Origin: Thermoplasmatota archaeon | GTDB taxonomy: Archaea; Thermoplasmatota; SW-10-69-26; JACQPN01; JAJPHT01 | Length of the DNA stretch: 59,051 bases | Assembly (NCBI GenBank): GCA_035687045.1 | Contig: DASRYU010000050.1 | Coordinates: 1-59,051, forward strand | Direction: 5' to 3' | Part shown: piece after piece, positions 36,788 through 58,951 of the stretch | How the letters are laid out: each line of letters starts with the position of its first letter | Position numbering within the stretch: the first letter of the stretch is position 1 | Program-made: the position numbers and the translations under genes | Notes under the pieces: model-generated | The model's input: the letters and a program-made list of their open reading frames with translations, nothing else | Database searches by the model: none | What the model was told of the DNA's origin: nothing

Positions 36788-37951
36788 TCACATCCGTACG
36801 GCGCGCTCCAAAACAGAACGCGCCGCAACGCCGGCGCGCACGGCGTCCTCCTCACTCATGGTAGGATGGACAAGGAAAGCGAGCGAGGACTCGTGGAGGA
36901 CGCGCGCGACGGGTTGTGCGTTCATCGACCCGAAGCGCTCGAAGGCCTTCTCGCGGTAGATCTCGCCGCAGCTCCCCGAAGCGCATGGCACCTGCTCCGC
37001 CTCCATGCTGGATAGCAAGCGCCCGCGGTCCCATCCGTCAGCGAGGTGCGCAGGATCAAGATAGGCGTAGAGGCGATAGTACGCGTTGCGTGCGCTGGGA
37101 CTAGGAATAGGGACGCGCAGGCCTGGCACTCCCTCGAGCGCCTTGGTGACGGCACGTGCGTTGCGTTGCCGCGCCGCGACCCACGCGGGGAGCTTGCGGA
37201 GCTGGATGCGCCCGATGGCGGCCTGCATCTCCGTCATCCTGTAGTTCGAGCCGAACGACTCGTGCAGCCACCGGAAGCCGGGGGGGTGCTGCCGTGCCAC
37301 TGCGGCCAGCGACTTCCCGTGGTCTTTGAACGACCACATGCGCTCAAAGAGGGCGTCGTCGTCGGTCACCACAAGCCCGCCCTCGCCGCCCGTCGTGATG
37401 ATCTTGTCCTGGCAGAAGGAGAATGCGGCGACGTGGCCGAAGCTGCCGACGGGCTTTCCATCGATCTCCGCCCCGTGCGCTTGCGCGCAGTCCTCAACGA
37501 CCGGGATATCGGTCTCGCGCGAGAGCTCCATGATCGGCGCCATCTCGCACGGCCAGCCGCCGAGATGAACGACGATCATGGCGCGAGTAGCAGGCGTCAG
37601 CGCCGCGCGCAGCGTGTCCGCGGTGACGTTGCCGCTCTCGGCGTCGACGTCGGCGACGACCGGCCGCGCTCCGACGAGCACGGCGGCCGCGGCCGTGGCG
37701 ATGAACGTGCGGCTCGGCACGACAACGTCGTCGCCAGGGCCGACCCCCAGCGCCCGGAGCGCAAGCTCCAGCGCAACGGTGCCGTTCGCGAGGGAGATCG
37801 CGTGGCGCCGCCCGAGGTGGGCCGCGTACTCGCGCTCGAACTCGCGGCACTCGTTGCCCGTCCAGAAGTTGACCTTGCCGGACGACAGGACGCGCTGGAC
37901 CGCCGCAATCTCGTCCTCCTCGAAGACGGGCCAACGAGGGTAAGGGAGCAC
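36788..37951 (-). CDS. DegT/DnrJ/EryC1-family PLP-dependent sugar aminotransferase (387 aa from GTG 37951). Last gene of the operon.
   Basis: - Family pattern ...EFEREYAAHLGRRHAISLANGTVALELALRALGVGPGDDVVVPSRTFIATA...
- Lys-containing SFCQDKIITTGEGG motif.
- The ORF track start (38416) lies inside the upstream gene. Confidence 0.85.
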   Translation of the reverse strand: MLPYPRWPVFEEDEIAAVQRVLSSGKVNFWTGNECREFEREYAAHLGRRHAISLANGTVALELALRALGVGPGDDVVVPSRTFIATAAAAVLVGARPVVADVDAESGNVTADTLRAALTPATRAMIVVHLGGWPCEMAPIMELSRETDIPVVEDCAQAHGAEIDGKPVGSFGHVAAFSFCQDKIITTGGEGGLVVTDDDALFERMWSFKDHGKSLAAVARQHPPGFRWLHESFGSNYRMTEMQAAIGRIQLRKLPAWVAARQRNARAVTKALEGVPGLRVPIPSPSARNAYYRLYAYLDPAHLADGWDRGRLLSSMEAEQVPCASGSCGEIYREKAFERFGSMNAQPVARVLHESSLAFLVHPTMSEEDAVRAGVAARSVLERAVRM

Positions 37952-37973
37952 GGTGCAGGGCACGCGCGGAGGG

Positions 37974-39218
37974 CTACAAGTGCGTTTTCTCGGCGTCCTG
38001 CCGCGGCGCCAGCGCCACAAGGACCCCCGCGAGAACCCAGAACGCCCGGAAGTTCTCGATGTTGGTGAACAGACCCTGGACGAGGGAGGCGATGAAATAG
38101 CAGGAGAGCGCGACCGCGGCGCCCCATTCTCGTTGCGCGAAGGCGCGTAGCTGGAACCCCGCGGAGAGGATGAGCCACGCGCCGGCCGCAAGTCCGAGCA
38201 CGCCGAGCTCTGCGGCCATCGAGAGGTACGTGTTGTGGACGACGGTGGGCGTCCCGACGATGGGCTCCAGGTGAAGAGCGGCTTGACCGATACCTGCGCC
38301 GAGGAGCGGGTATTCAAGAAAGGCCCGCAGCGCCGCCTTCCAGAGCACCATGCGGTGGCCGACGTCCTTCCGCTCCGGCTCCTCACCCTCACCCGGTGTG
38401 ACCTCCTCGACTGCACGCGAGATCCGAGATGCGGGATCCGGAGCGGCCACCACGTACGCTGCCAGCACCAGCAGCGCGACCGACGCCCCCGGAGCGAGCG
38501 TCTTCAGCGCCTTCGTTCGTCGAAACACAAGCGGCAGCGCCGCCACGGCCGCGACAACGACGCCCAAGAGCATCCCTCGCGATGCCGTGGCGACGAGGCC
38601 TGCGAGCAGGATCCCTGCGCATAGTCCCTTCCAGGCGCTCCGGCGCCGCTGGGGAGTGCCATCCATCGCCTCGGTCGCGAGCAGCGCCGCGCAAGCCGCC
38701 GCAAGGAAGTTCGCGAAGAGGTTCGGGTTCGTGAATGTCGTCACAGGACGCGCGTCGCCCGCGAGCGAACGCACGATGGCCCATCCGGCGAGCGCGATCC
38801 CGCCGAACGTGAGGCCTCGGAGCAGCGCGCGCGTCGCGCTGCGATCTCCCCGCAGGAGCGCCCACGTCGCCAGGGCCCAGGCGACCGCGCCGACCAGCTT
38901 GATGAGGTCGACGACGCCGCGGCCGACGTCCAGCACATAGCCCGACGCCACGCCGACCATGAGCGAGAGCGCGGCGGCTCCCAGCAAGGCGAGGACCGGA
39001 CCCACGAGAACCGGTGGCGACGCGCGGAGCTGCCGAGCGATCGAGGCGCTCATGACGACAATGGCGGCAGCGACGAACAAGTCGCCGGCGCTCAAGGTCA
39101 GTCCCCAGCCCCCCGGGGCGACAGCCGTGAAGTGGAGCGGAAGGAGCAGCGCGAGCGCGAGGGCGGCAGGGACGCGCAGAGCGGCAATGTGCGAAGCAAC
39201 GCGCTGGCGCGGCGTCAT
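37974..39218 (-). CDS. Wzy_C-domain (O-antigen ligase/polymerase/PglL-type) polytopic membrane protein (414 aa)
   Basis: About 10 TM segments, with the signature VVHNTYLSMAAELGVLGLAAGAWLI (HN...E.G..G) in a late loop/TM region. Confidence 0.65.
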   Translation of the reverse strand: MTPRQRVASHIAALRVPAALALALLLPLHFTAVAPGGWGLTLSAGDLFVAAAIVVMSASIARQLRASPPVLVGPVLALLGAAALSLMVGVASGYVLDVGRGVVDLIKLVGAVAWALATWALLRGDRSATRALLRGLTFGGIALAGWAIVRSLAGDARPVTTFTNPNLFANFLAAACAALLATEAMDGTPQRRRSAWKGLCAGILLAGLVATASRGMLLGVVVAAVAALPLVFRRTKALKTLAPGASVALLVLAAYVVAAPDPASRISRAVEEVTPGEGEEPERKDVGHRMVLWKAALRAFLEYPLLGAGIGQAALHLEPIVGTPTVVHNTYLSMAAELGVLGLAAGAWLILSAGFQLRAFAQREWGAAVALSCYFIASLVQGLFTNIENFRAFWVLAGVLVALAPRQDAEKTHL

Positions 39219-39835
39219 GGGAGCGGCTCGCGCTCCCGCGCGCCGGTGAACTCAGGCATCGTCGCGTGCCCCTCGGCGCTCACGCCCTTCCGCGAGAAAA
39301 CCAGGAGGGCCGTCCGCCAAAGGATCTTCAGGTCAAGCGCGAAGGAGCGATGGTCCACGTACCACACATCCAGGCGGAAACGGTCCTCCCATCCCAACGC
39401 ATTCCGACCGTGCACGACAGCCCAGCCGGTGAGGCCCGGCCGCACCTCGAGACGCCGCGACTGGAAAGCCGTGTAACGGGGGATGTAGTGGACGTAGAGC
39501 GGTCGCGGTCCCACAAGGCTCATGTCGCCGCGTAGGACGTTCCACAGTTCAGGAAGCTCGTCGAGCGTCGTCCCGCGCAGGAACCGCCCGAAGCGCGTGA
39601 GCCGCGCCTCGTCGGAACGCAGAGCGCCGTCGGGTCCACGCGCGTCCGTCATCGTGCGGAACTTCAGCAGCTCGAAAGGACGTCCGCGAAGCCCCGCGCG
39701 CGTCTGGCGGAACAGCACGGGTGAACCGAGGCGCCAGCGGACGAGGAGCGCGACGACGAGCATGACGGGAAGCGCCAGCACGAGCAGCGCAAGCGACGTG
39801 ACGATGTCGAACAACCGCTTTGCACCGTCGCCCAT
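39215..39835 (-). CDS. Small PglC/WbaP-C-type phosphoglycosyl transferase (Bac_transf family, 206 aa)
   Basis: KRLFDIVTSLALLVLALPVMLVVALLVRWRLGSPVLFRQTRAGLRGRPFELLKFRTM...DELPELWNVLRGDMSLVGPRP. Start at ATG 39835, inside the longer ORF. Confidence 0.85.
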   Translation of the reverse strand: MGDGAKRLFDIVTSLALLVLALPVMLVVALLVRWRLGSPVLFRQTRAGLRGRPFELLKFRTMTDARGPDGALRSDEARLTRFGRFLRGTTLDELPELWNVLRGDMSLVGPRPLYVHYIPRYTAFQSRRLEVRPGLTGWAVVHGRNALGWEDRFRLDVWYVDHRSFALDLKILWRTALLVFSRKGVSAEGHATMPEFTGAREREPLP

Positions 39836-39864
39836 CGCAACCGAGCGAGGCCAGCGCGGGTTTT

Positions 39865-40995
39865 TCAACGTGTCGTAGCGGCGAGGAGCTCGCCATAAAG
39901 TTCCAGCGTCCGGTCGACGACGGACGTGAGGCTGAACTCGTTCTCGACGAGCGCGCGAGCCGCGTCCGAGAACCCGCGCCGCGATGTCGGGTCGCTTGCG
40001 AGCCGCAGGAAGGCCTCCGCGAGCGCGTGCGCGTCGCGCGCGGGCACGAGAAGCCCGGTCGACCCGTGCCGCACGACCTCGCGGCATCCGGCCACGTCCG
40101 TCGCAACAAGCGTCCGCCCCGTCGCTGCGCCCTCCAGGAGGATGCGTGGGAGGCCTTCGCGGTAAGATGGTAGGCAGACGACGTGCGCGCTCGCCAGCAC
40201 TTCCGGCATGTCGTCGCGCTGTCCCCACCACTCGATGTCGCCGTCCGACGTCCAGCGATGAAGCTCGTCCTCCGCGATTGCCGCAGGATTGCCGGGGTCG
40301 AGACCGCCGACGAGGATGAAGCGTGCCTCCGGGAGCTTCGCGCGGACGAGGCGAGCCGCCTCCACGAACTCGCCGATGCCCTTGTCTCGGAGCATCCGCG
40401 CGCCCAGTACGACCGTGAACGGTCCCTCCGGTTCGGGGCATCGGGGGAAGCGCGCGAGGTCAATCCCCGAGCCGCGGATGAGCCGCGTTCGGTCGGCCTT
40501 GACAAGACCCATACGAAGAAACTCTTCGCGGTCATCCGAGTTCTGGAAGACCGTGATCGCGTTGCGATGACGGAACGCGGCGCGGTATCCGACGCGCGCG
40601 ATGGCGCGCGCCGTGCGGGCTCTGCGGGAGTCGTTGATGAACGCGTACCCCAAGCCCGTGATCGTCGACACGCTAGCGGGGACGCTCGCCGCGCGAGCCG
40701 CCAGGCCTCCGTAGAGGCAGGGTTTGATCGTGAAATGGTGGACGAGATCGGGGCGGACCGCCCTGTAGATACGCAGAACCTCCGCGACGGTGGCCGCTTC
40801 GCGCAGCGGATCGGTGCTTTTGCGATCGAGCGGCAGGGGGTGGAACGCGAACTCGCGGATGATCTCGTCCGCTCGTGGTCCGGGAGGCGCGACCACGTGC
40901 ACGTCATACTTGGCTGCCCGGCACGCGCGCGCCAGCGCCATCCTTTGCGGGAAGAACGCAGCGGCCTCATTGACAAAGAGGAGGACGCGGCTCAC
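39865..40995 (-). CDS. GT4-family (GT-B, Glycos_transf_1) glycosyltransferase (376 aa)
   Basis: C-terminal EGLPRILLEGAATGRTLVATDVAGCREVV (ExxxxxxE-type motif). GTG start, in a GTGA overlap with the upstream gene. Confidence 0.75.
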   Translation of the reverse strand: MSRVLLFVNEAAAFFPQRMALARACRAAKYDVHVVAPPGPRADEIIREFAFHPLPLDRKSTDPLREAATVAEVLRIYRAVRPDLVHHFTIKPCLYGGLAARAASVPASVSTITGLGYAFINDSRRARTARAIARVGYRAAFRHRNAITVFQNSDDREEFLRMGLVKADRTRLIRGSGIDLARFPRCPEPEGPFTVVLGARMLRDKGIGEFVEAARLVRAKLPEARFILVGGLDPGNPAAIAEDELHRWTSDGDIEWWGQRDDMPEVLASAHVVCLPSYREGLPRILLEGAATGRTLVATDVAGCREVVRHGSTGLLVPARDAHALAEAFLRLASDPTSRRGFSDAARALVENEFSLTSVVDRTLELYGELLAATTR

Positions 40996-42920
40996 TTCGC
41001 CCGCTCCTGGTGCTCAAGCCACAGCTGGAACATGAGCACGTTCCAGAGGTGATACTGCCAATCGCGCTTCCCCGAGAGGTGCTCGCGCCAGAGACGCGCA
41101 ACCGGCTCCGGACGCAGGTAGCCTTCACGTGCAAGTCGTCCCTCGTCGAGGAGCGCGCTCGCCCAGTCTCGGAGCGGGCCGCGGAGCCACTCGCCGATCG
41201 GAATGCCAAAGCCGGTCTTCGGCCTGTCCACGAGGTGGGCCGGCACGTGCCGGTGAAGGAGGCGACGGAGGATCCGCTTCCCTTGGCCGCCTTTCACGCG
41301 CGCCTCCAGCGGCAACGACCACGCCACCTCGAAGACGCCAGGGTCCAAGAACGGGACGCGGACCTCCAGCGCGTGCGCCATGCTTGCACGGTCCACCTTG
41401 ACGAGGATGTCGTCCGGCAGGTACGTCAGCGTGTCGCGCAGCATCATGCGCTCCGCTAGAGCCAGCTCCTGCTCTTGCGGGAGAAGAGCGTCTGTTTCCG
41501 GGCGCTCGCTCAAGCCGACCACGGCCGTCCACGCCTCTGGCCAACGACGCGCGAAGGTGGCGTAGAACTCGTCCGCGTCCCGGCTGCGGAGCGCGAGGGC
41601 GAGCTTCTGGATCTTTTCGCCGGTGAAGCGGGGTCTACGCCTCTCGGGAAGGAGGCGAGCCAGCGCGTCCCACGTCCCCGGGCGCATCGACAGGAGGCCG
41701 GCGGCCCCTACTTGTCGCAGGGGTCTCGGCAGGCGCGCGGCGGCCTCCCAGAGCGTCGGGCCGTGCACGTGACGGTTGTACCCTCCAAAGAGCTCGTCGC
41801 CGCCGTCGCCAGAGAGGGCGACCGTCACGTGCCGACGCGCCAGCCGAGCCACGAGATAGGTCGGGATCTGCGACGCGTCCGCGAAGGGCTCGTCGTAGAT
41901 GCGCGGAAGCGCGGGAAGGACGGCGAGCGCGTCCTCCGGGGTGACGCGGAACTCCGTGTGCTGGGTGCCAAGGTGCTCCGCCACCGCCCGAGCCGCCTGC
42001 GACTCGTCGTAGTCGGAGTCGTCCCAGCCGATCGTGAAGGTGCGCACGGCAGCCGCGCTCTCGCTCTGCATGATGGACACGATCAAGGACGAGTCGATCC
42101 CGCCAGAGAGGAACGCGCCCAACGGCACGTCCGACTCCATGCGCAGCCGCACTGCGACGCGCAACGCTCGCTCCAGCCGCTCGGCAAGCGCGTCCTCGTC
42201 CATCGCGCGGGAAGCCTGACGCGCCGCGGCCGCCACGGCCTCGGCCGACCAGAAGCGCGTCGGCTCCGAGGGCGCTTCCCCTGGTCTCACGGACAGCCAT
42301 GTCGCCGGGGGAAGCTTGCGGACCACCGGATGAATGGTGCGTGGGGCCGGGATGCAGTCTCGCTCGAGGAGGAGCGCCAGCGACGCCCGGTCGACGCTGC
42401 GGGACAGCAGGCCATGCGCGCGCAGCGCCTTGAGCTCGGAGCCGAAGAGGAACGTGCCATTCTGCACAGCGTAGTAGAGCGGCTTCTCGCCGAATCGGTC
42501 GCGCGCCAGGTAGGCGACCCCTTCCTGCTCGTCCCAGATGGCGAGCGCGAACATCCCGTTGAGCAACGGAAGCGTCTCGACGACCCCGAACCGCTCCACT
42601 GCGGCCAGCAGGACCTCGGTATCGCTGCCGCCGCGGAAGCTGATGCCTTGCGCCTCGAGCTGTGTCCGGAGCTCGCGGAAGTTGTAGATCTCACCGTTGA
42701 ACGAGACCGTGAATCGGCCGCTCGCCGACGCCATCGGCTGGTGGCCGGCGGGGGAGAGATCGATGATTGCGAGCCTCCGGTGGCCGAGCGCCACGCCGGA
42801 GCTTGCCCATGTCCCCGCGGAATCTGGACCGCGGTGGGCAATCGCCAGCGCCATGGCTTCGGCCGCCTTTGGGGATGCGGCGGCAGTGTCGTGGGAGAGG
42901 ATCCCGCAGATGCCGCACAC
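40992..42920 (-). CDS. asnB: Asparagine synthase (glutamine-hydrolysing)-family amidotransferase, copy 2 (642 aa from GTG 42920)
   Basis: - (V/M)CGICGI N-terminal nucleophile Cys2.
- PP-loop SGGIDSS.
- Located in a glycan operon, so sugar amidation is the likely role. Confidence 0.85.
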   Translation of the reverse strand: MCGICGILSHDTAAASPKAAEAMALAIAHRGPDSAGTWASSGVALGHRRLAIIDLSPAGHQPMASASGRFTVSFNGEIYNFRELRTQLEAQGISFRGGSDTEVLLAAVERFGVVETLPLLNGMFALAIWDEQEGVAYLARDRFGEKPLYYAVQNGTFLFGSELKALRAHGLLSRSVDRASLALLLERDCIPAPRTIHPVVRKLPPATWLSVRPGEAPSEPTRFWSAEAVAAAARQASRAMDEDALAERLERALRVAVRLRMESDVPLGAFLSGGIDSSLIVSIMQSESAAAVRTFTIGWDDSDYDESQAARAVAEHLGTQHTEFRVTPEDALAVLPALPRIYDEPFADASQIPTYLVARLARRHVTVALSGDGGDELFGGYNRHVHGPTLWEAAARLPRPLRQVGAAGLLSMRPGTWDALARLLPERRRPRFTGEKIQKLALALRSRDADEFYATFARRWPEAWTAVVGLSERPETDALLPQEQELALAERMMLRDTLTYLPDDILVKVDRASMAHALEVRVPFLDPGVFEVAWSLPLEARVKGGQGKRILRRLLHRHVPAHLVDRPKTGFGIPIGEWLRGPLRDWASALLDEGRLAREGYLRPEPVARLWREHLSGKRDWQYHLWNVLMFQLWLEHQERAK

Positions 42921-42921
42921 G

Positions 42922-45036
42922 TTACCGTGCACCTCCGATGGGGCTCTGCCGGAGCTGACGCTCCAGCGTCTCGCGCTGGGAGGTCCGCACGCGTGAGGGC
43001 AGCAGGCCCCACGCGAGGCGAGCGAGCAGGACCGCCCAACTCCGCGCTCCACCGCCCAACTCCTGGATGGCACGCGCTTGCACTTGGGCGCTCCCCCACA
43101 GGTAGCGCAGGCGGCGCTTCGCCTCGAACGACTGGCCTTCGTGGATGCGCTTCGCCTGGAGGGGCACATTCGCGATACCGATGCGATAGCGCGCCGCGGC
43201 AAGACGCACCCACAGGTCGTAGTCGAACTGTGAGCGGCGCTTGACGGAATAACCGCCGACGCTGAGCACGTCCTCCCGACGCATCAGTACCGCGCTGTGG
43301 CACACCGGGTTGTAGTTCGCGAGAGCGTCGGTGGCGTCCTCGACGCGGACAACGCCCTTGACCTCCTCCCAACGCGGCTCCTCGTCGCCCCGCACGATGA
43401 TCGCGTCAGTCCCGATGACGGAGAAGTCGGGGCGCTCCGCCATCAGCCGGGACAGGACCTCGAGCCGGCGGGGGTGCGCGGGGTCGTCCGCGTCGATGTT
43501 CGCGACGAGCGGTCCGCGCGCGCGCGACAAGGCCAGGTTCAGGGCGGCGCCGCGACCGATGGGCCCGGAGCGCACCAGCACGACGCGGTCGTCGTCCTTC
43601 GCGAGCGACGCGACGAAGTCTGGCGTGCCATCGATCGAGCCGTCATCCACGATGACCATCTCCCAGCGGGTGTGGGTCTGCTGCTGGATGCTGCGGATGA
43701 CGCTTGACAAAGTGCGCCGCGCGTTCCTCGTCGTGCAGATGACGCTCACGAGCGGGCGCTCGGGGAGAGGCGCGGAGTCCGATGCGGCGCGCACGGGCGA
43801 CGGAAGCGCCCGCGGCCCCTGGATCGCGAGCGGGAGGAGGAGCATCGTCCAGAACGCGGGGTGGCGGAGGATGAAATGGAACTGCGCGAACGCGACGAGA
43901 GCGAGGGCCATAAGCCCCATCGCGAGCGAGCCGCCGCGCCATGCCTCGCGCGCGGCCCATATGAAGAATGCGACGAGGAGCAATCCTCCGACAAGCCCCG
44001 CGTTCGTCGCCCAGTCGATGACCGCGTTATGCGCCTCATATCCTTGAAGCGGCCCGTTCAGCCCTGAGTAAGCGCCTGGCCCATGCCCGACGAGGTAGGA
44101 GGAGAGGACCGCGTCCGCACCGTTATGCCAGAGCTCGAGGCGTATGGAGACTTGGCGATCGACCGCGTTGAGGTCGGCGAGGACGCGGGGGGCGAGCAAG
44201 AGGGCGGCGACGATGCCGGCCACGATCGCAACGCCTGCGATCGCGTTCGCTGCGCGTCTCGGGAGGCTGCGCGCGGGGGCTTTGCGCCCGAGACGAAGGA
44301 CAAGCACGATGCCGCCCACCGCCGCGCTCAGACTCCACGAGACGAGAAGCGCTTCGCTTGCGACGCCGATCCCGACGACGACCGCTGCGGCGCCGGCGAC
44401 GGACCACCCCAGCTGGCGCCATCCTCCCTCCCGGAAGAGGAGCAGCGCAAGGTACGGAATGGGCAGGAGCGCGAGCGCGACTTGGTTCGGGTTCTGGGAG
44501 AGCCCCATGAATCGCACGCCCGTGCCTGGGCCGAAGCCGACGAGTCCCTGGCTGCGTTGCAGCGCGAAAAGAATCGCGAGAGGCACCACCGTCGCGATGA
44601 GGAAGGCTTGAGCGGCGATGCGGGACCTGTCGCGGAGGTCGGGCTGCGTCATGAACAGGCTCGTCGCTCCGGCGGCGACGACGAGGCCGAGCAGGGTGCG
44701 CAGCCCGCTCCGGTCCCACGTTCCTGAGAGGAGGCCTTGCGCCCATCCGATCCCCAGGAGGAGGAACGCGAGCGCCCAAAAGCCCATCACGACGATGGCC
44801 GGCGTGCGGACGCTTAGGCCATGCCTCGTCCACGCTTCCCTCAGACGGTAGGCGATCCACGCTCCCATGATGATCTCGCCGGGGCCTGCGGCCCATGGGT
44901 CGAGCCGCAGGGCCGTGAAGGTGGTGAGGGCGAGGCCGACGCCGAACACGGCGGACGAAAGGTGGCCGGTCCTCAACCTGCCGCCTCCGTGACGAAGAAC
45001 ACTCGCATCCACAGCTCGAGGTTCACGATGCGCCAC
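42922..45036 (-). CDS. Fusion protein: N-terminal Wzy_C-like polytopic membrane domain plus C-terminal GT2 glycosyltransferase (up to 704 aa)
   Basis: - N-terminal ~400 aa has 9 or more hydrophobic segments and EAHNAVIDWATNAGLVGGLL.
- C-terminal part has VSVICTTRNARRTLSSVIRSIQQQTHTRWEMVIVDDGSIDGT and a DxD motif (NIDADD).
- The first 64 nt overlap asnB copy 1, so the real start may be GTG 44949. Confidence 0.65.
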   Translation of the reverse strand: MAHREPRAVDASVLRHGGGRLRTGHLSSAVFGVGLALTTFTALRLDPWAAGPGEIIMGAWIAYRLREAWTRHGLSVRTPAIVVMGFWALAFLLLGIGWAQGLLSGTWDRSGLRTLLGLVVAAGATSLFMTQPDLRDRSRIAAQAFLIATVVPLAILFALQRSQGLVGFGPGTGVRFMGLSQNPNQVALALLPIPYLALLLFREGGWRQLGWSVAGAAAVVVGIGVASEALLVSWSLSAAVGGIVLVLRLGRKAPARSLPRRAANAIAGVAIVAGIVAALLLAPRVLADLNAVDRQVSIRLELWHNGADAVLSSYLVGHGPGAYSGLNGPLQGYEAHNAVIDWATNAGLVGGLLLVAFFIWAAREAWRGGSLAMGLMALALVAFAQFHFILRHPAFWTMLLLPLAIQGPRALPSPVRAASDSAPLPERPLVSVICTTRNARRTLSSVIRSIQQQTHTRWEMVIVDDGSIDGTPDFVASLAKDDDRVVLVRSGPIGRGAALNLALSRARGPLVANIDADDPAHPRRLEVLSRLMAERPDFSVIGTDAIIVRGDEEPRWEEVKGVVRVEDATDALANYNPVCHSAVLMRREDVLSVGGYSVKRRSQFDYDLWVRLAAARYRIGIANVPLQAKRIHEGQSFEAKRRLRYLWGSAQVQARAIQELGGGARSWAVLLARLAWGLLPSRVRTSQRETLERQLRQSPIGGAR

Positions 45037-46982: not shown

Positions 46983-47027
46983 CCGCGGCCCATCGTGGAC
47001 CCCCCCCTTAGCCGTTGCCGAGGCGGC

Positions 47028-52651: not shown

Positions 52652-52661
52652 GTCAATCTCC

Positions 52662-53822
52662 TCAGAAGGTGTTTGTCTTGTTCAGCAGCCGTTCGTCGAT
52701 GGGCGTCGCCGCCAGTATGTGCGCGATGCGCTCGCCCGCGCGGCCGTCGCCGTACGGGTTCGAGCACTTCGCGACGCGAGCGCGGTAGCCGTCGTCGAAT
52801 GCCGCACGCTCAACGGCAGCCTGAATCTCGCGAGCGTCGTTGTTGACGAACTCGACATTCTCAGCGGCCTCACGACCGCGTTGGCGGGGGCCGGTATTGA
52901 CGACGGGCAGCCCGAACAGCGGGGCTTCAATGATGCCAGCGCTGGAGTTGCCCACCATGACGCGGGCGCGGCGCAGAAGCGTCACGAACACTTCCCGAGG
53001 CAGATTTCGGAAATCGTGCACGAGGGAAGGGTGTTCCCGCCGCGCGCGCTCAATCTCCCGAACGACCGGCTCGCGGCCGGCGTCGCTGTTCGGGTGGATT
53101 ACCACGAGGGGAAGCCCCGTCGCAAGCACGCCCTCCAGCGTCGCGCGCATCTCCGCGCCGGCGCCATCCGCGTTCGTGAGGATAGGGTGCTGGATGACGA
53201 GCGCGAAGTCGCCGTCGGCGACGGCGGATCCCAGGCGCGCGCGTATCTCCGTCGCCTCAAGTGGCGGCGTCCGAACCAGGCGGTCCAGCCCGGGCGCGCC
53301 GACGACGTGAACGCGCCACGCGTCCTCCCCCATGCGCTCAACGCGCTCAGCGCTGCGGGGCGTCGTGACCAGGTGAAGGTGCGCGAGCTTCGTGACGGCG
53401 TGACGTACAGCGTTGTCAACGTTCCCATCGGAGGCGATGTCGCCGCCGCCGATGTGGGCCACTGGAATGCGGAGGTACGCCCCCGCGAGCGCCACAGTGA
53501 TGGCCTCCTCACGGTCCATCGGCGCGACCACCCAATCAGGCCGCTCGCGCTCGAAGGTCTCGACCAGGCTCGCGAGCTGGATGCCGGCGCCACGCACGCG
53601 CGCCCCCTTCGAATCAGAATCCAGGAGGCTCTCGATGCGCGCCACGATGCGCACACCATCGCGCTCAATCTCGCCTACGGTGCCGCCGAAGCGCGCGGAA
53701 AGGTGCGCGCCCGTGACGATCACGCCTGGGTCCAAACCCCTCGCGGCGCAGGCGGCGATCACGGGCTGGAGGATGTCGTATTCGGAGCGGATCCCCGTGG
53801 TGAACAGGATCTTGCTGGGCAT
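52662..53822 (-). CDS. neuC: Hydrolysing nucleotide-HexNAc 2-epimerase (NeuC/LegG-like, 386 aa)
   Basis: KILFTTGIRSEYDILQPVI...PVAHIGGGD...HAVTKLAHLH pattern of Epimerase_2 / NeuC. Start at ATG 53822, inside the longer ORF. Confidence 0.85.
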   Translation of the reverse strand: MPSKILFTTGIRSEYDILQPVIAACAARGLDPGVIVTGAHLSARFGGTVGEIERDGVRIVARIESLLDSDSKGARVRGAGIQLASLVETFERERPDWVVAPMDREEAITVALAGAYLRIPVAHIGGGDIASDGNVDNAVRHAVTKLAHLHLVTTPRSAERVERMGEDAWRVHVVGAPGLDRLVRTPPLEATEIRARLGSAVADGDFALVIQHPILTNADGAGAEMRATLEGVLATGLPLVVIHPNSDAGREPVVREIERARREHPSLVHDFRNLPREVFVTLLRRARVMVGNSSAGIIEAPLFGLPVVNTGPRQRGREAAENVEFVNNDAREIQAAVERAAFDDGYRARVAKCSNPYGDGRAGERIAHILAATPIDERLLNKTNTF

Positions 53823-54757
53823 CAATACACGTCCGAATCCATCATCGCGTAGCTCCAGGCGCGCGGGTCGTCGAGGCCGGTGCAGCCGCCGAGGGAGCGC
53901 GCGCCCATGTAGGTGACGGGGGAAGTGAGGCCGAATCCAGCCTTCTCCAGGTCGCCGTGGAGGGGGTGGCGCAGCGGCAGCCAGCAGTTGACCGCGGAGG
54001 CACCTGCCAAAGCAGCTTCCTGCAGGAGACCTCCGACAAGACGGCGGCGAGCATCGTTGTCGTCGATCGAACGGAGTTCCAGGACGTCCAGCTCGGAACC
54101 GTAGCGCTTGTAGACGACGTACGCGCGCAGGTCGCGTCCGTCCTGCACTCCGCGAAGAACGTAGCTGTTCTCCGGGTGGCGGCCCAGGCGCCACCGGAGG
54201 TGTGCACCGTCCCGCACAACCTCGACGCCCGTCGCGCTCCGCGTCTCTCGCCACAGGTCGTCGAGGCGCGTGTCGTCCGCATCGAGGGGGGCCAGAGCCT
54301 CGCCTCCGCCCCGTGCCGGCCCGGGAAGGCGCAGGGTGGGAATCTCGAGGAGGTCTTCCCACCCGAGATCGCGGACGAAGCCGCGGTGACTCTGCGCGTT
54401 CGGGAAGCCCCACACGGCACCGTACCCTTCTCGCGACATACGCTCGTAGAGCCGCAGCGCAAGCGTCGTGAACAGCCCTTTGCCGCGATGCGCCGGGTGA
54501 GTCATCGTTGTCATCGAGAGGGCCGAAAGCACTTCGCGGCCGTCGACCAGGAGGCGCACCGGCGAGACCGCGTAGTGCGCTGCTAGGGTGTCGCCCGCCC
54601 ATGCGAGCTCGATCATCGGCTGCGCTCCTGAAGGGTTGTCGAGGAAGCGCCAGCGCCAGAACGCTTCGGACATGGGCCGTTGGAAGCAGATCGCGAAAAG
54701 GTCGAGGATCGCCTTCTCGTCGCCGGGCCTGTAAGGCCGGATGTCCAAGCCGCTCAC
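53822..54757 (-). CDS. GNAT-family N-acetyltransferase (311 aa from GTG 54757; ORF opens at 54772)
   Basis: IRPYRPGDEKAILDLF...HPAHRGKGLFTTLA (acetyl-CoA site-like). GTG 54757 gives a GTGA overlap with the neuB stop, like other junctions in this operon. Confidence 0.6.
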   Translation of the reverse strand: MSGLDIRPYRPGDEKAILDLFAICFQRPMSEAFWRWRFLDNPSGAQPMIELAWAGDTLAAHYAVSPVRLLVDGREVLSALSMTTMTHPAHRGKGLFTTLALRLYERMSREGYGAVWGFPNAQSHRGFVRDLGWEDLLEIPTLRLPGPARGGGEALAPLDADDTRLDDLWRETRSATGVEVVRDGAHLRWRLGRHPENSYVLRGVQDGRDLRAYVVYKRYGSELDVLELRSIDDNDARRRLVGGLLQEAALAGASAVNCWLPLRHPLHGDLEKAGFGLTSPVTYMGARSLGGCTGLDDPRAWSYAMMDSDVY

Positions 54758-55809
54758 GCTAAGTCCTCCCATCCGACGATATGGTCGGCCGCCAGATCCT
54801 GACGCGCTACGCGACCCACCACCCGCGGCAGCTCACGCGGGGCGAGCCCGCTGCCCGGGCGCTTCATCGCCAAGTGGGAGCGAGTGAGTCTCTCGCCCGC
54901 GCGTACAGGCGCGCGCAGCACGATGCTTTTGCGGCCGATCGCCGTGTTGTCCACCTCCGGTCCCCGCGGGCGCTTGACGCCGTCGCCCAGCGCCGCCTCG
55001 ACCAGGCGGACGGCGCGCACGAGCGCGGCGAACTCGTCGGGCGCCATGGACGCCGAGTGATCCGGGCCGCTCATGCTGCGGTCCAGCGTTATGTGCTTCT
55101 CGAGGAGCGCGGCACCGCGGGCGACCGCGGCAAGAGCCACCTCCACGCCCTGCGTGTGGTCGCTGAAGCCGACGGGTACCGCGAAGGCCGTGCGCAGCGT
55201 GTCCATGGCTCGAAGGTTCGCATCGGCGGCCGCGGCCGGATAAGCGGAGACGCAGTGGAGAAGCGCGAGCGGCCCTCCTCTGGCGGCGTGGATCGATGCA
55301 ACCGCCTCCTCCACCTCGGCAAGATAAGACATTCCCGTCGAAAGGAGCAGCGGTAGCCCGCTCTGCGCGAGGTGCTGGAGGAAGGGCAGGTTCGTGATCT
55401 CGCCGGAGCCGATCTTGATGGCTCGCACGCCGAGGCGTACGAGCAGGTCGGCGCTCTCCTCGTCAAAGGGGCTGCTGAGGAACTCGATGCCGCGCGAACG
55501 CGCCTCGTCGCGAAGCTCAGCGTGCGCGCGCTCGTCGAGCTCGAGGCGCCGCAGCATCTCCATCTGCGACTCGTCCGGCTGGGTCGTCGCGGCTTGATAT
55601 TTCGCCTTCGGGGCGCCAACGGTGGCGAGGCGGCCCGCGGAGAAAGTCTGGAACTTGATCGCGTCGGCGCCAGCGTCAGCCGCGACGTGCACGAGGCGCC
55701 GGGCGAGCGCGAGATCGCCATTGTGATTGACGCCAGCTTCTGCGATGACATAGCATGGTGTTCCCTCGCCGAGGAGCTTTGAGCCTATCCGGACCGTGCG
55801 CGGGACCAT
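54754..55809 (-). CDS. neuB: Nonulosonic acid synthase (NeuB/LegI/PseI family, 351 aa)
   Basis: CYVIAEAGVNHNGDLALARRLV...AGADAIKFQTF and a C-terminal SAF/antifreeze-like domain. Confidence 0.9.
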   Translation of the reverse strand: MVPRTVRIGSKLLGEGTPCYVIAEAGVNHNGDLALARRLVHVAADAGADAIKFQTFSAGRLATVGAPKAKYQAATTQPDESQMEMLRRLELDERAHAELRDEARSRGIEFLSSPFDEESADLLVRLGVRAIKIGSGEITNLPFLQHLAQSGLPLLLSTGMSYLAEVEEAVASIHAARGGPLALLHCVSAYPAAAADANLRAMDTLRTAFAVPVGFSDHTQGVEVALAAVARGAALLEKHITLDRSMSGPDHSASMAPDEFAALVRAVRLVEAALGDGVKRPRGPEVDNTAIGRKSIVLRAPVRAGERLTRSHLAMKRPGSGLAPRELPRVVGRVARQDLAADHIVGWEDLA

Positions 55810-55817
55810 GCATCGCC

Positions 55818-57125
55818 TCAGTTGTATTTGCGGAAGACCGGCTTCACGGGGCGGCCCACGAGGTGCTTGTGGACGCCTTCGTCGAGCGCCTTGCGATAGA
55901 CGCGGAACGCGCCGTCCGCCGCTTCGAGTGTGCGTTCGACCTCGGCCGGCCCGTGCGCCGCGCTGATGGCAAGGTAAGGGATGAGGACGCCGCGGCGCAC
56001 CATCTCTTGTAGAAAGAGCGCGCGGAACGCGGGGTCTGCCTCGCGCCCTTGGTTGCGCGTCACAATGAACGGGCTACAGGAGATGCCTTCGCAGGAGACG
56101 ATGCCGCTCAGCCCATTCTGTTCCGCGAGCTTGTTCATGCCCGACTGGAGCAGCTCGCCCGTCTTCCAGAGCTGTGGCACGACGTTCTTCTCGCGCACCT
56201 CGCGCACCGTTGCAAGACAGGCGGCGAGGCTGTGCGTTTCCGCGCCGTGCGTGGAGCTGAGAAGGAATACCTTGTGCTTGTCATGCCGGAGCCCGCCCAG
56301 CTCCATGATGTCCCGACGGCCTGCGAGCACCGCGACGGAGAAACCGTTCGCGATCGCCTTGCCGAATGTCGAGAGGTCGGGCGTGACGCCGTAGTACGCC
56401 TGCGCGCCGCGCTCGTGCCAGCGGAATCCTGTGATCATCTCGTCTAGGATGAGCAGCGCGCCGTGACGGTGGGCGAGGTCGCGCACCCTCTTGAGGAACT
56501 CGTCGCGCGGGTGCTCGAGCGTCGCGGCCTCGAGGATGACGCACGCGACCCCGTCCGGGTGCTGCTCGAAGATGCGCTCGAGGGAGGCGATGTCGTTGTA
56601 ACGGAACGGCAGGCTGAGGTCAGACACGGGGCGCGGGACGCCGTTGTTGGGCGGAGTCGTTCCAATGAACCAGTCGTCGAAGCTGAAGAAGGTGGGGCCT
56701 TGGCAGAACGCGACCGTGTCGCGCCCGGTGAAAGCGCGGGCGAGGCGCACGGCGGCTGTAGTCACATCGCTGCCGTTCTTCGCGAATTTGACCATCTGGG
56801 CGCTGGGGATGGTAGCGACTAGCTCCTCTGCCAGCTCCACCTCGATCGGGGACGGTCGCGTGAAGTTCGGGCCCTTCTCGAGCTGGCGCCGCACCGCGTC
56901 GAGGACGCGCGGGTGACCGTAGCCCAGAAGGACCGATCGGAGACCCATCCCCCAATCGAGGAACTCGTTGCCGTCGACATCCCAGACCGTAGAGCCATCG
57001 GCCCGCTCAATGAACCCGGGCGCGAGCTCGGGGAACTGGTCGTCACCTTTGCTGTAGGTGTGGCAGCCGGCGGGAATGATCTCGTGGGCGCGCGCCGAGA
57101 GCGCCTTCGACCGGGCGAACCTCAT
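55818..57125 (-). CDS. Class-III PLP aminotransferase (glutamate-1-semialdehyde 2,1-aminomutase-like, 435 aa)
   Basis: - N-terminus SKALSARAHEIIPAGCHTYSK...GSTVWDVDGNEFLDWGMG.
- LILDEMITGFRW.
- PLP-Lys context TFGKAIANG. Confidence 0.8.
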   Translation of the reverse strand: MRFARSKALSARAHEIIPAGCHTYSKGDDQFPELAPGFIERADGSTVWDVDGNEFLDWGMGLRSVLLGYGHPRVLDAVRRQLEKGPNFTRPSPIEVELAEELVATIPSAQMVKFAKNGSDVTTAAVRLARAFTGRDTVAFCQGPTFFSFDDWFIGTTPPNNGVPRPVSDLSLPFRYNDIASLERIFEQHPDGVACVILEAATLEHPRDEFLKRVRDLAHRHGALLILDEMITGFRWHERGAQAYYGVTPDLSTFGKAIANGFSVAVLAGRRDIMELGGLRHDKHKVFLLSSTHGAETHSLAACLATVREVREKNVVPQLWKTGELLQSGMNKLAEQNGLSGIVSCEGISCSPFIVTRNQGREADPAFRALFLQEMVRRGVLIPYLAISAAHGPAEVERTLEAADGAFRVYRKALDEGVHKHLVGRPVKPVFRKYN

Positions 57126-58102
57126 GGTGATGCTCTCGACTCCTCGCGTCGCGCGTCGCGCTCCGCGGCCTCAAGGGCCTCAAGGACGAGGCACTCCTCG
57201 CGGAAGGTGTAAGGGTAACGCCGCTCGTTGCGAAGCGCTTCGAGGAACAGCCGCATCTCCTCGACGTACATCGCCTCCAGGCGCGCGGAGCTGGCGGCGC
57301 AGGGCAGCACGTCCCGCGTTCCGGCCGCATCCACCACGACCTCCCCGCGTGTCGCGTCCCACTCGACCGTTCCCTCGGAGCCCACTACGCGCAGGGCGCG
57401 GATCGGTCTGCGCGCTAGCACGTCCGCCTGCAGGTGGCCGATCGCGCCCGAGGACGTCTCGAACAGGAAGTGGACGACATCGTCCACCTTCACGTCGAGA
57501 TCGCTCACTTTCCCGCCCAGCGAGCGTGAACGCACGGGCAGGCCGAAGAGCCAGCAGAGCCAACTCATTTCTATCGCGGCGACCTCACGGCACGCGGCCG
57601 TGCGCGGCTCGGCGACGAAAAAGGAGCGGTAATCTTCCCACGGATGCCAGTCCGGGAGGTACTGCCCCGAGTGGTGCGTGAACGCGAGCGGGCGACCGAT
57701 GCGGCCCGCCTCGAGCGCCGCCCGCACGAGCGCGACGGCGGGGTGGTGGCGCATCGTGGTGGATGGCGCGGCGAGGCTGCCGTGAGATGCCGCCACGCGC
57801 TCCGCCTCCAGGAGGCCGTCGCGGACGAGATTGAGCTCGCAGAAGTATGGAATGCCGCGCTCGGCCGCGGCCAACACGAAGGACTCGTGTGCCGCCGGCG
57901 CCGTGCTGATGATGAGGAAATCAGGTGACGCGGCCAGAGCCGCCTCGAAAGTCTCCGCCGTAGAGATCCCGTACTTCTGAGCAGCTTCTGCGCGCCGATC
58001 CGCGCGAACGTCCAGTCCGATGATGTCTCGCTCGCCCAGGGCGATGAGGTTGCGGACACGGCGCTGGCCCATGGAGCCGAGACCAACCACGAGCGCTTTC
58101 AC
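57122..58102 (-). CDS. Gfo/Idh/MocA-family NAD(P)-dependent oxidoreductase (326 aa from GTG 58102)
   Basis: VKALVVGLGSMGQRRVRNL Rossmann N-terminus. GTGA overlap with the upstream gene. Confidence 0.75.
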   Translation of the reverse strand: MKALVVGLGSMGQRRVRNLIALGERDIIGLDVRADRRAEAAQKYGISTAETFEAALAASPDFLIISTAPAAHESFVLAAAERGIPYFCELNLVRDGLLEAERVAASHGSLAAPSTTMRHHPAVALVRAALEAGRIGRPLAFTHHSGQYLPDWHPWEDYRSFFVAEPRTAACREVAAIEMSWLCWLFGLPVRSRSLGGKVSDLDVKVDDVVHFLFETSSGAIGHLQADVLARRPIRALRVVGSEGTVEWDATRGEVVVDAAGTRDVLPCAASSARLEAMYVEEMRLFLEALRNERRYPYTFREECLVLEALEAAERDARREESRASP

Positions 58103-58905
58103 GCGCCGCCCTCCATGTGCGTGTGCAGGGTTTCCTTGGTCCGCAATGCTTCCCAGTGCTTCGCGTACCAGTTCACGCCCGCATAGCGGGAATTCATAGC
58201 TGCGATGTCGGGGCGGCGCTCGAGCAGCGCGAGGATCTCCCGCATGCCGAAGAAGCCCCCTGGAATATAGAGCTCCTCGTAGACGGCTTTCACGAAGGCG
58301 TAGTCCTCGGGGTAATCGAGCGTCCACCGCTCGCGCTGCGATAGGTCGACCTCGTTGACCACGTTCCCCACGCGGAAGCGGCGAGGCTGGTCCCAAATGA
58401 ATGGCGATACGTGCTCGCGCTCGTGCGGCGCCTTCGCTTCCGACCACGCGATCTTCAGCGCCTCGTAGGAGAATGTCTCTGTGTCCAGCCCATCTGGGAA
58501 TGTGGCCGGGTGATTCGTGCTGACGTAATCGTAATTGCCGTCGCGGAACGTGCGCACGACCCGATCGACGACGTCGGGCTCGATCAGCGGACAATCCGAT
58601 GTCACGCGGACCACCGGATCGATGTCGTATGCCGTCGCGGCTTGATAGTAGCGGTCGAGGACGTCGTTCTCGCTCCCACGGAAGACTTCGTAGCCAACCT
58701 CTTCGACGAGCCGGACGATGACGTCGTCTGCGGGATTCGTCGTCGTTGCCACGATGATTCGGTCGACCTCGCGGCAGAGTTGCATGCGGTCGAGCATGTG
58801 GAGAAGGAGCGGTTTGCCGCACGCGGTCAGGAGCACCTTTCCAGGAAGGCGGCTCGATCCCATGCGGGCCTGGATGACCGCTGCTGCCTTGCCTCGTTCT
58901 GCCAT
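58099..58905 (-). CDS. Cytidylyltransferase-family protein (acylneuraminate cytidylyltransferase / SpsF-FlmC-like; CMP-NulO synthetase candidate, 268 aa). First gene of the operon.
   Basis: AAVIQARMGSSRLPGKVL...FRGSENDVLDRYY...VRVTSDCPLIEP. Start at ATG 58905. Confidence 0.75.
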   Translation of the reverse strand: MAERGKAAAVIQARMGSSRLPGKVLLTACGKPLLLHMLDRMQLCREVDRIIVATTTNPADDVIVRLVEEVGYEVFRGSENDVLDRYYQAATAYDIDPVVRVTSDCPLIEPDVVDRVVRTFRDGNYDYVSTNHPATFPDGLDTETFSYEALKIAWSEAKAPHEREHVSPFIWDQPRRFRVGNVVNEVDLSQRERWTLDYPEDYAFVKAVYEELYIPGGFFGMREILALLERRPDIAAMNSRYAGVNWYAKHWEALRTKETLHTHMEGGA

Positions 58906-58943
58906 GGGGCCGCGCCTCGTCGGGGCGCACATCTCGCTGGGCG

Positions 58944-58951
58944 CCTTATAC
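58944..58951 (-). promoter_or_regulatory. TATA-like box GTATAAGG, ~38 nt upstream of the first gene of the glycan operon
   Basis: The minus strand reads GGGTATAAGGCGCC. It is the only AT-rich element between 58906 and the window end, and implies a short (~15-nt) leader. Confidence 0.4.

Follow-up and report, generated by a model that had tools for sequence, protein, structure and literature searches.

A predicted bacterial-type surface-glycan pathway with a legionaminic-type sugar module on a Thermoplasmatota contig

Can a bacterial-style line for the assembly of a surface glycan sit in the chromosome of an archaeon and, if so, what would it build there and how did it arrive? The question is raised by contig DASRYU010000050.1 of GenBank assembly GCA_035687045.1, a stretch of 59,051 nt from a Thermoplasmatota archaeon that was analysed over its full length and is called the window here. 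An earlier note on this DNA, made from its letters alone, had described 18 consecutive minus-strand open reading frames (ORFs), and these are indeed present at 36788-58905 without internal stops. We consider it fairly probable that the locus is a horizontally acquired, chromosomal Thermoplasmatota pathway for a surface glycan, which would be primed with a sugar of the N,N'-diacetylbacillosamine (diNAcBac) type, would depend on a flippase and on Wzy_C proteins and would carry a legionaminic-type sugar.

Gene order and predicted pathway

The window has a G+C content of about 70% and raw ORF lists are therefore full of spurious frames. Gene calls rest on an analysis of third-codon-position G+C (GC3) and on independent calls on a near-identical contig of the European Nucleotide Archive (ENA), ERZ27256749:k141_571430, both in agreement. 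This contig carries the same gene calls as the window, differs from it at 3 of 14,298 overlapping bases and extends about 8.9 kb past its end. Read from the 5' to the 3' end of the string, the features are as follows, with profile scores in bits.

58973..59051, minus strand: 3' end of a 19th co-directional gene, a NeuD/PglB/VioB (PglD/LegH-type) sugar N-acetyltransferase, reading ...VGVPARARSLH and stop
58944..58951, minus strand: TATA-like GTATAAGG, inside a 67-nt internal gap, 39-46 nt before ATG 58905; GAGG at -13
58099..58905, minus strand: CMP-nonulosonate synthetase, LegF/NeuA-type cytidylyltransferase, 268 aa (Pfam CTP_transf_3, 111 bits; start as on the ENA contig)
57122..58102, minus strand: GFO/IDH/MocA-family NAD(P) oxidoreductase, 326 aa (Pfam GFO_IDH_MocA and C3 domain; GTGA overlap with the upstream gene)
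55818..57125, minus strand: class-III (glutamate-1-semialdehyde-aminomutase-like) aminotransferase, 435 aa (NF004856, 647.6 bits, cut-off 486; Pfam Aminotran_3)
54754..55809, minus strand: nonulosonic acid synthase, NeuB/LegI type, 351 aa (TIGR03569, 435.9 bits, cut-off 399.65; Pfam NeuB and SAF)
53822..54757, minus strand: GNAT-family acyltransferase, 311 aa (Pfam Acetyltransf_9, 61.6 bits; no NCBIfam match)
52662..53822, minus strand: hydrolysing 2-epimerase for nucleoside-diphosphate (NDP) sugars, NeuC/LegG type, 386 aa (TIGR03568, 350.8 bits, cut-off 235.9; WecB model 77.8 bits)
51980..52651, minus strand: PIG-L/LmbE-family de-N-acetylase, 223 aa (Pfam PIG-L, 96 bits)
50907..51983, minus strand: CBS-domain sugar-1-phosphate nucleotidyltransferase of PtmE-like architecture, 358 aa (Pfam CBS and NTP_transferase)
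49927..50910, minus strand: LegB-like NAD-dependent NDP-GlcNAc 4,6-dehydratase, 327 aa (TIGR04180, 444 bits, below the cut-off of 475)
48503..49930, minus strand: soluble protein with a KpsC/KpsS-like (Capsule_synth) domain, 475 aa (Pfam Capsule_synth, 27 bits, cut-off 20)
47028..48500, minus strand: MOP/Wzx-type polysaccharide flippase, 490 aa, with multiple transmembrane (TM) segments (Pfam Polysacc_synt_3, 38.7 bits, cut-off 23)
44973..46982, minus strand: asparagine-synthase-type glutamine amidotransferase AsnB-a, 669 aa (Pfam GATase_7 and Asn_synthase; TIGR01536, 465 bits)
42922..44976, minus strand: Wzy_C membrane domain (about residues 1-390) fused to a family 2 glycosyltransferase (GT2) domain (about 408-665), 684 aa (Wzy_C 32.5 bits, cut-off 31.7; Glycos_transf_2 87 bits)
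40992..42920, minus strand, corrected start: second AsnB-type amidotransferase AsnB-b, 642 aa (538 bits, below cut-off, on TIGR03108, the model for XrtA/PEP-CTERM exopolysaccharide amidotransferases; TIGR01536, 477 bits)
39865..40995, minus strand: family 4 glycosyltransferase (GT4), 376 aa (Pfam Glyco_trans_1_4, Glycos_transf_1 and Glyco_trans_4_2)
39215..39835, minus strand: small monotopic phosphoglycosyl transferase (PGT) of the PglC/EpsL type, 206 aa, the priming enzyme (Pfam Bac_transf PF02397, 210 bits, profile positions 1-178 of 179)
37974..39218, minus strand: membrane protein of the Wzy_C (O-antigen ligase/polymerase/O-oligosaccharyltransferase) family, 414 aa, about 10 TM segments (Wzy_C, 73.5 bits)
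36788..37963, minus strand: DegT-family sugar 4-aminotransferase (PglE function, Pcryo_0638 type), 391 aa, the last gene (Pfam DegT_DnrJ_EryC1, 313 bits)

All 18 complete ORFs match curated families of one pathway type above Pfam thresholds, better than chance would give. The very high GC3 reported earlier was measured at 0.79-0.87, uniform across the whole string, and Shine-Dalgarno-like motifs precede 11 of the 18 genes. Every gap in the window is 45 nt or shorter, as had been claimed, once AsnB-b is started at GTG 42920: its automatic start, ATG 42854, drops the catalytic N-terminal Cys, with GTG 42920 the product begins MCGICG, and 1 nt separates the gene from the stop codon before it. The eight stop/start overlaps described before all lie where they had been placed, but the count was short, as TTGA at 50907-50910 and TTGA at 44973-44976 bring it to ten.

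The operon comprises at least 19 genes and is cut by the end of the window. On ERZ27256749:k141_571430 the acetyltransferase gene is complete (6184-6837, 217 aa; TIGR03570, 187 bits, cut-off 160.8), and a 256-nt divergent region separates it from an opposite-strand PglF/WbpM-like gene for a membrane-anchored 4,6-dehydratase of 635 aa. This divergent region, outside the window, is the true head of the operon. The GTATAAGG box had been taken to precede the first gene; it is internal, because the tail of a co-directional gene occupies 58973-59051, and is at most a candidate for an internal promoter. The 19 genes are presumably co-transcribed, the 67-nt and 45-nt gaps may hold internal promoters, and no oligo-T terminator is evident after the DegT gene.

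The PGT aligns end to end with residues 10-203 of Campylobacter concisus PglC (E = 2e-57). Its Asp-Glu dyad (LDELP) and PRP motif (GPRPL) are identical to those of PglC, and D92, E93, P110, R111 and P112 are invariant across 34 homologues. The protein has a single hydrophobic N-terminal segment (residues 14-32), a predicted helix that may be re-entrant or spanning. An AlphaFold2 (AF2) model, with a predicted local distance difference test score (pLDDT) of 82, retrieved PglC (8e37 and 8g1n; TM scores 0.71/0.79) as the top Foldseek matches, followed by WbaP. A five-residue aromatic box together with a GLLLP loop has been described as the fingerprint for UDP-diNAcBac (PMC10186338), of which the box is kept in full (5/5: Y, Y, W, F, F) and the loop is not (GALRS). 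The DegT protein matches PDB entry 7l7x at E = 8.7e-126, its nearest relative being the UDP-specific Pcryo_0638; the 7L7X enzyme has been shown biochemically to aminate UDP-4-keto-6-deoxy-GlcNAc en route to UDP-diNAcBac (PMC8040287). Judged by these similarities, the locus holds a complete diNAcBac-type priming module, made up of the PglF-like, DegT, PglD-like and PGT proteins.

Profile hidden Markov model searches bear out the earlier Bac_transf, Wzy_C and flippase calls (210, 73.5 and 32.5, and 38.7 bits, respectively), along with the GT4 and GT2 calls. The earlier note had read the PGT, the flippase and the Wzy_C proteins as defining a bacterial route; the small monotopic PGT and the Wzy_C proteins are the truly out-of-place parts, but MOP flippases and nonulosonic acids are no bacterial hallmark. 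AglR, the proposed haloarchaeal N-glycan flippase, is also of the MOP type. The Capsule_synth protein matches KpsC in the PDB (6mgd, E = 2.5e-6), has no predicted TM segments and is a candidate CMP-nonulosonate glycosyltransferase, and AsnB-a probably amidates the carboxylate of a uronic or nonulosonic acid.

The two Wzy_C proteins differ in kind. In the best 150 matches among 1.84 billion cluster representatives, the Wzy_C-GT2 fusion found no full-length counterpart apart from its own representative, and each half matched stand-alone proteins only; in its sequence the first conserved Arg is replaced (SEA). The 414-aa protein, whose gene is coupled to the PGT gene by an ATGA overlap, matches WaaL (7tpg, E = 5.5e-9). 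Its R214, R289 and H328-N329 are invariant among it and four distant homologues and align to the R, R and HN of WaaL 7tpg, whose Arg, Arg and His positions are reported to be catalytic. Because these positions are retained, we lean weakly towards a ligase or O-oligosaccharyltransferase for the 414-aa protein; with low confidence, the fusion might be a polymerase.

The 5' half of the operon encodes nonulosonic acid synthesis, and here too the NeuB, NeuC (Epimerase_2) and CTP_transf_3 calls made from the letters hold up in profile searches. The NeuC, NeuB, NeuA and NeuD models do not tell N-acetylneuraminic acid (Neu5Ac) from legionaminic acid (Leg); a legionaminic-type 5,7-diamino sugar is indicated rather than Neu5Ac because a 4,6-dehydratase, an aminotransferase and an acetyltransferase accompany NeuC, NeuB and NeuA. 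For the LegB-like dehydratase, the next-best model of the short-chain dehydrogenase/reductase (SDR) family reached only 155 bits, as against 444 for TIGR04180. The PtmE analogy of the CBS-nucleotidyltransferase is drawn from the Campylobacter GDP-linked Leg pathway. Structural relatives of the NeuB-type synthase in the PDB are SpsE and NeuB, and a PseI identity was rejected, the PseI model giving 271 bits under a cut-off of 340. The additional GFO oxidoreductase, class-III aminotransferase, GNAT and PIG-L proteins suggest a modified legionaminic derivative, in which the class-III enzyme would serve sugar amination or N-acyl decoration and the GNAT acyltransferase probably the latter. Legionaminic acid has been found on the N-glycan of the archaeon Halorubrum sp. 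PV6 (PMC6137143) and some 160 archaeal NeuB sequences are known (PMC8208679); this half of the locus is not new for archaea.

The region next to the operon had been proposed to supply it with nucleotide sugars, and the genes at 28867-36714 fit that role:

28867..30186, minus strand: UDP-glucose 6-dehydrogenase (TIGR03026, 417 bits; AglM and TuaD models about 400-412 bits, below their cut-offs)
30256..31143, plus strand: GalU, UTP-glucose-1-phosphate uridylyltransferase (TIGR01099, 358 bits, cut-off 326.8)
31145..32968, minus strand: GlmS, with native GC3 of 0.96 (TIGR01135, 753 bits)
33015..34163, minus strand: archaeal-type bifunctional sugar-1-phosphate nucleotidyltransferase/acetyltransferase, GlmU-like (best NCBIfam model TIGR03992 Arch_glmU, 235 bits)
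34337..35413, plus strand: SDR nucleotide-sugar epimerase/dehydratase, a TviC/WbpP-like epimerase (Pfam Epimerase and GDP_Man_Dehyd; all NCBIfam models below cut-off)
35410..36714, plus strand: TviB/WbpO-like UDP-GlcNAc 6-dehydrogenase (NF011729, 379 bits, below cut-off; TIGR03026, 330 bits)

In the pathway that we infer from these families, the PglF-like dehydratase, the DegT aminotransferase and the PglD/NeuD-type acetyltransferase would produce a UDP-2,4-diacetamido-2,4,6-trideoxyhexose of the diNAcBac type, and the 206-aa PGT would load its sugar-1-phosphate onto a polyprenyl phosphate, presumably dolichyl phosphate. The chain would then be extended by the GT4, the GT2 domain and the KpsC/KpsS-like enzyme. 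Likely building blocks are N-acetylhexosaminuronic acids, which the TviB-like dehydrogenase and the epimerase would supply and the two AsnB-type enzymes would amidate, while a 5,7-diamino nonulosonic acid of the legionaminic type would be formed by the LegB-like, PtmE-like, NeuC-, NeuB- and NeuA-type enzymes, activated with CMP and then added. The MOP flippase would bring the glycan, on its lipid, across the membrane to the outer side, where the two Wzy_C proteins would act in its polymerisation, in its en-bloc transfer to a surface acceptor, or in both. Our guess, made with low confidence, is that the fusion serves as the polymerase and the 414-aa Wzy_C protein as a ligase, with an envelope protein (of the S-layer or otherwise) or a lipid as the acceptor.

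Archaeal host and origin of the locus

The earlier note had called the genome apparently archaeal, and the domain check agrees. The proteins of the window are labelled in NCBI as those of a metagenome-assembled genome (MAG) of Candidatus Thermoplasmatota archaeon. In a search of 185,579 species genomes, all nine genome matches of the Lhr helicase (6584-9454) were archaeal, the best being Thermoplasmatota MAGs at 73% and 56% identity, and the named relatives of the GlmU-like gene (33015-34163), which span 47-62% identity, come without exception from Thermoplasmatota. The motif CTTTATC occurs just three times in the 59 kb (6145-6151, 9469-9475 and 22698-22704, all on the minus strand), each copy preceding a start codon by 15-31 nt on the strand of the gene concerned (aldehyde dehydrogenase, Lhr helicase and ArsR regulator, respectively). 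Other leading genes, among them the PglF-like and PglD-like ones, are preceded by comparable AT-rich boxes at -18 to -32, and TTTAT boxes of archaeal style stand roughly 25 nt ahead of several start codons. The CTTTATC copies are probably archaeal TATA boxes for leaderless or short-leader transcripts, which their spacing fits. An Rfam scan of the window returned a tRNA only and nothing diagnostic of domain. A haloarchaeal host was rejected, as protein isoelectric points are mostly 6-10 with no excess of acidic residues.

The left part of the window holds further genes of note. The Lhr-type helicase forms a pair with a metallophosphoesterase (MPE-like) gene (6584-10450, minus strand), divergent from an acidic LVIVD-repeat protein (10506-11807, plus strand). 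A tRNA-Asn(GTT) at 13188-13261 (plus strand) is overlapped at its 3' end by the longest ORF of a 460-aa protein without a Pfam match (13250-14632, plus strand), so the true start of that protein must be further downstream. Together with a neighbouring BNR-repeat protein, it has a syntenic BNR pair in a related MAG, and both could be surface proteins. At 20377-24009 (minus strand), ArsR-family HTH regulators and AHSA1/SRPBCC proteins stand in tandem pairs; the ENA-contig calls there give two complete ArsR/AHSA1 pairs and then a further ArsR-type gene cut by the end of the locus.

With regard to origin, the earlier note had left a choice between an acquired bacterial pathway and an undescribed archaeal system, and the evidence favours acquisition of the locus core from bacteria, at least in part. 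Named relatives of the PGT at 64-71% identity are all bacterial (Comamonas, Acidovorax, Simplicispira, Cupriavidus, Mesorhizobium, Rubricoccaceae and Geminicoccaceae). The PGT-PglD-DegT-PglF set is a standard bacterial cassette, also found where the surroundings, with a Wzz/GNVR tyrosine kinase and MqsRA toxin-antitoxins, are clearly bacterial. Monotopic PGTs form a family exemplified by bacterial PglC (PMC10859629), and the small ones have been described as exclusively bacterial and hence proposed as antibiotic targets (PMC11257628). That description concerns distribution, not function, and does not hold here, where one such gene lies on a Thermoplasmatota contig and a second on a related contig of 217 kb.

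This related contig (ENA ERZ1758341) encodes a GlmS, a neighbouring 167-aa protein and a GlmU that are 86%, 83% and 68% identical to those of the window. At 2657-10131 it carries an intact PGT-PglD-DegT-PglF cassette directly upstream of glmU-glmS, together with a divergent AsnB-type gene, and it ends inside the cluster. The DegT and PglF-like proteins of the window are 63% and 50% identical to those of this contig, versus 56%/43% and 40%/43% for two bacterial cassettes. In a more distant relative, no glycan cluster accompanies glmU-glmS.

Composition changes at about 33,000: GC3 is 0.91-0.98 before this point and 0.76-0.87 after it, with a step from 0.96 to 0.83 at about 32,968-33,015, and it does not recover before the longer contig ends. 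The step is not a domain boundary, because the first low-GC3 gene, the GlmU-like one, is archaeal in affinity. Differences from other assemblies number 29 in the 11.8 kb to the left of this point and 4 in the 26 kb to its right. Comparison of the island with its left flank, as had been proposed, yields a clear GC3 step and a weak tetranucleotide signal: correlations are 0.84 within the left part, 0.66-0.79 between left and right, and only 0.63 within the right part itself (33-46 versus 46-59 kb), which is heterogeneous. The coincident steps in GC3 and in assembly differences suggest an island that recently spread or swept, including the native-type glmU, although a chimeric join would show them too. 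In the simplest history, the diNAcBac cassette would have entered the lineage from bacteria at the glmU-glmS site and, later on in the organism of the window, would have been broken up and enlarged with some 20 kb of genes for nonulosonate synthesis, a flippase, glycosyltransferases and Wzy_C proteins.

Points against the pathway and alternative explanations

Several observations weigh against the proposed acquired, Wzy_C-dependent pathway or against parts of it. In the mobile loop of the PGT, residues 70-74 read GALRS, whereas GxLLP is found there in its 33 closest homologues and in the diNAcBac-specific PGTs. With this motif lost, the substrate may differ or the enzyme may be impaired; the change may reflect altered donor or carrier specificity, or relaxed constraint. 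Campylobacter-type PGTs use undecaprenyl phosphate. No protein of the locus passes the LegC model, the sole DegT protein scoring 203 bits on TIGR04181 (cut-off 420); a class-III aminotransferase stands in its place. Sequences of the Wzy_C family do not separate polymerase, ligase and O-oligosaccharyltransferase, and the AF2 model of the 414-aa Wzy_C protein, a near-orphan with only four distant bacterial relatives at 31-36% identity in a word-indexed homologue search, was built from a thin alignment and has a pLDDT of 49. Searches of the window genes and of the 8.9-kb extension turned up neither a Wzz/PCP chain-length regulator nor a Wza/OPX export protein, an absence that would be plausible in a single-membrane cell, though the Wzx/Wzy label then fits only in part. 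The roughly 15-fold lower density of assembly differences in the lower-GC3 segment fits recent acquisition, but a mis-join would give the same pattern.

Beyond the window, convergent with the PglF-like gene, ERZ27256749:k141_571430 encodes a 502-aa protein at 2515-4023 (plus strand; window-equivalent 61787-63295). Some 9-10 TM segments are predicted for it, together with a C-terminal soluble domain of about 130 aa, and it gave no significant Pfam match, no NCBIfam match and no PDB sequence match, AglB and PglB structures included. Its first loop, HMDAYVHWGRAK, vaguely recalls what we take to be the first-loop motif of GT-C enzymes of the STT3/AglB type, and the protein is possibly an unrecognised glycan transferase.

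This protein bears on the alternative that the glycan is the donor for archaeal N-glycosylation, with an AglB (STT3-type) encoded elsewhere transferring it to Asn and the Wzy_C proteins making a second product or serving polymerisation only. A diNAcBac module with a PglC-type PGT is the front end of Campylobacter N-glycosylation, legionaminic acid has been characterised in just one archaeal case, on an N-glycan with its genes near aglB (PMC6137143), and the 502-aa protein could be a GT-C-type transferase. Yet it shows no detectable sequence similarity to AglB or PglB structures, and the earlier note's finding that the window lacks AglB extends to the 8.9-kb extension, as no STT3 domain was matched in either. 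The operon also contains two Wzy_C proteins, one of them translationally coupled to the PGT, which argues for a Wzy_C-dependent last step, and we regard the AglB route as unlikely, if still a serious contender. A related proposal is that this lineage of Thermoplasmatota possesses a glycoconjugate pathway in which a PglC-type PGT would load a diNAcBac-type sugar onto dolichyl phosphate and the product would pass to AglB or to a new transferase, for which the 414-aa Wzy_C and 502-aa multi-TM proteins are candidates; this too we hold only tentatively, and think it improbable.

It is more doubtful still that two separate systems share the strand, a legionaminic module (49.9-59.6 kb) decorating archaella, pili or the S-layer through a dedicated transferase, and a PGT/Wzy_C exopolysaccharide module (36.8-49 kb). 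The low tetranucleotide correlation between 33-46 and 46-59 kb (0.63), possible internal promoters in the 45-nt and 67-nt gaps, the PGT cassette of the 217-kb contig, which has no visible Leg module in the 18 kb examined, and an AsnB-GT4-PGT block that recurs alone on another metagenomic contig would all suit such a division. It sits less well with the uniform GC3 of the string and with the KpsC/KpsS-like protein and flippase that bridge the modules, at junctions of 2 nt and 4 nt to their neighbours. The string has one DegT and one NeuD/PglD protein only, at its opposite ends, which suggests that both modules share them. Lastly, the contig might be bacterial, or a mis-binned chimera whose left part is archaeal and whose right part is bacterial, in which case the locus would be an ordinary O-antigen, capsule or exopolysaccharide cluster. 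The sharp GC3 step at about 33,000 coincides with a step in the density of assembly differences, the named PGT relatives are all bacterial, the tetranucleotide correlation between the parts is lower than within the left one, and the proteome, not being acidic, is not that of a haloarchaeon. We nevertheless judge a bacterial or chimeric contig to be very improbable, as the junction at 32,968-33,015 is crossed identically in three assemblies (the window, ERZ27256749 k141_571430 and ERZ27256757 k141_464251) and the first low-GC3 gene is an archaeal-type GlmU with Thermoplasmatota named relatives only. In the related 217-kb contig, too, this cassette occupies the glmU-glmS site, and its DegT and PglF-like proteins are closer to those of the window than are those of the two bacterial cassettes compared; AT-rich boxes at archaeal TATA distance precede the PglF-like and PglD-like genes. 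In tetranucleotide signature the parts differ only moderately, and the right one correlates with itself at just 0.63.

Implications and comparison with known systems

The acquired pathway that we favour is built entirely from well-described families and is laid out like a bacterial locus for O-antigen, capsule or protein O-glycosylation. What is unusual is the archaeal host and the Wzy_C-GT2 fusion; nothing indicates a new mechanism. A search of the literature on Wzy-dependent, O-antigen-type, Wzy_C- or PglC-type pathways in archaea or Thermoplasmatota found nothing specific. Horizontal transfer of glycan loci is common and the finding rests on metagenome-assembled sequence, which limits its reach. 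If functional, the locus would mean that a whole bacterial-style glycan line can be transplanted to an archaeal envelope with dolichols and without lipopolysaccharide, peptidoglycan or an outer membrane, and it raises the testable question of whether the PglC-type enzyme and the Wzy_C proteins accept dolichyl carriers. A coat of legionaminic acid would shape virus recognition and cell-cell interactions in an uncultured archaeal group. Attachment of the glycan to protein, be it by AglB or by a new transferase, would give archaea their first protein-glycosylation pathway that begins with a monotopic PGT. A product fed to AglB would place a Campylobacter-like N-glycosylation inside the very domain regarded as the source of bacterial PglB. 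The locus also qualifies the published generalisation that small monotopic PGTs are exclusive to bacteria (PMC11257628).

Compared with known systems, the locus has in common with bacterial Wzx/Wzy O-antigen and capsule loci and with Wzy_C-type O-glycosylation (PglL) a priming PGT, cytoplasmic glycosyltransferases, a MOP flippase, Wzy_C proteins and sugar supply in one co-directional cluster. It differs from them in that Wzz/PCP, Wza/OPX and LCP-type components are absent from the window, one Wzy_C domain is fused to a GT2 and the host is an archaeon with no lipid A core or peptidoglycan for ligation. Among the Wzy_C-type O-glycosylation systems compared, the S-layer O-glycan of Tannerella forsythia is terminated by pseudaminic acid (Pse) or Leg (PMC5378307).

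With the CMP-legionaminic acid pathways of C. jejuni (Leg/Ptm) and Halorubrum sp. PV6, the window shares LegB-like, NeuC/LegG, NeuB/LegI, NeuA/LegF and NeuD/LegH proteins and the PtmE-like CBS-nucleotidyltransferase. By contrast, no protein of the window passes the LegC model, and the GFO, class-III aminotransferase, GNAT and PIG-L proteins are additional. The Halorubrum Leg genes lie near aglB and feed N-glycosylation, whereas those of the window are embedded in an operon with a PGT, a flippase and Wzy_C proteins (PMC6137143).

The AglB-dependent Agl pathways of archaea also build a cytoplasmic lipid-linked glycan, with a MOP-like flippase, uronic or amidated sugars and clustered nucleotide-sugar genes, but the window has no AglB. 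To our knowledge, characterised Agl pathways start with polytopic GPT-type or GT2 enzymes, not with a monotopic PGT, and we know of none that includes Wzy_C proteins.

The front end of the Campylobacter pgl system (PglF, PglE, PglD and PglC) and the Bacillus subtilis eps genes (EpsC, EpsN, EpsM and EpsL) provide the same four activities as the locus, namely a membrane-anchored 4,6-dehydratase, a DegT aminotransferase, a left-handed-helix acetyltransferase and a monotopic PGT of about 200 aa. Relative to these systems, the cassette of the window is split, with PglD heading the operon, PglF divergent from it and the PGT and DegT genes at the 3' end; the host is archaeal, the loop reads GALRS and not GxLLP, and no PglB or AglB is adjacent. 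The carrier is undecaprenyl phosphate in Campylobacter and presumably dolichyl phosphate in the archaeon of the window.

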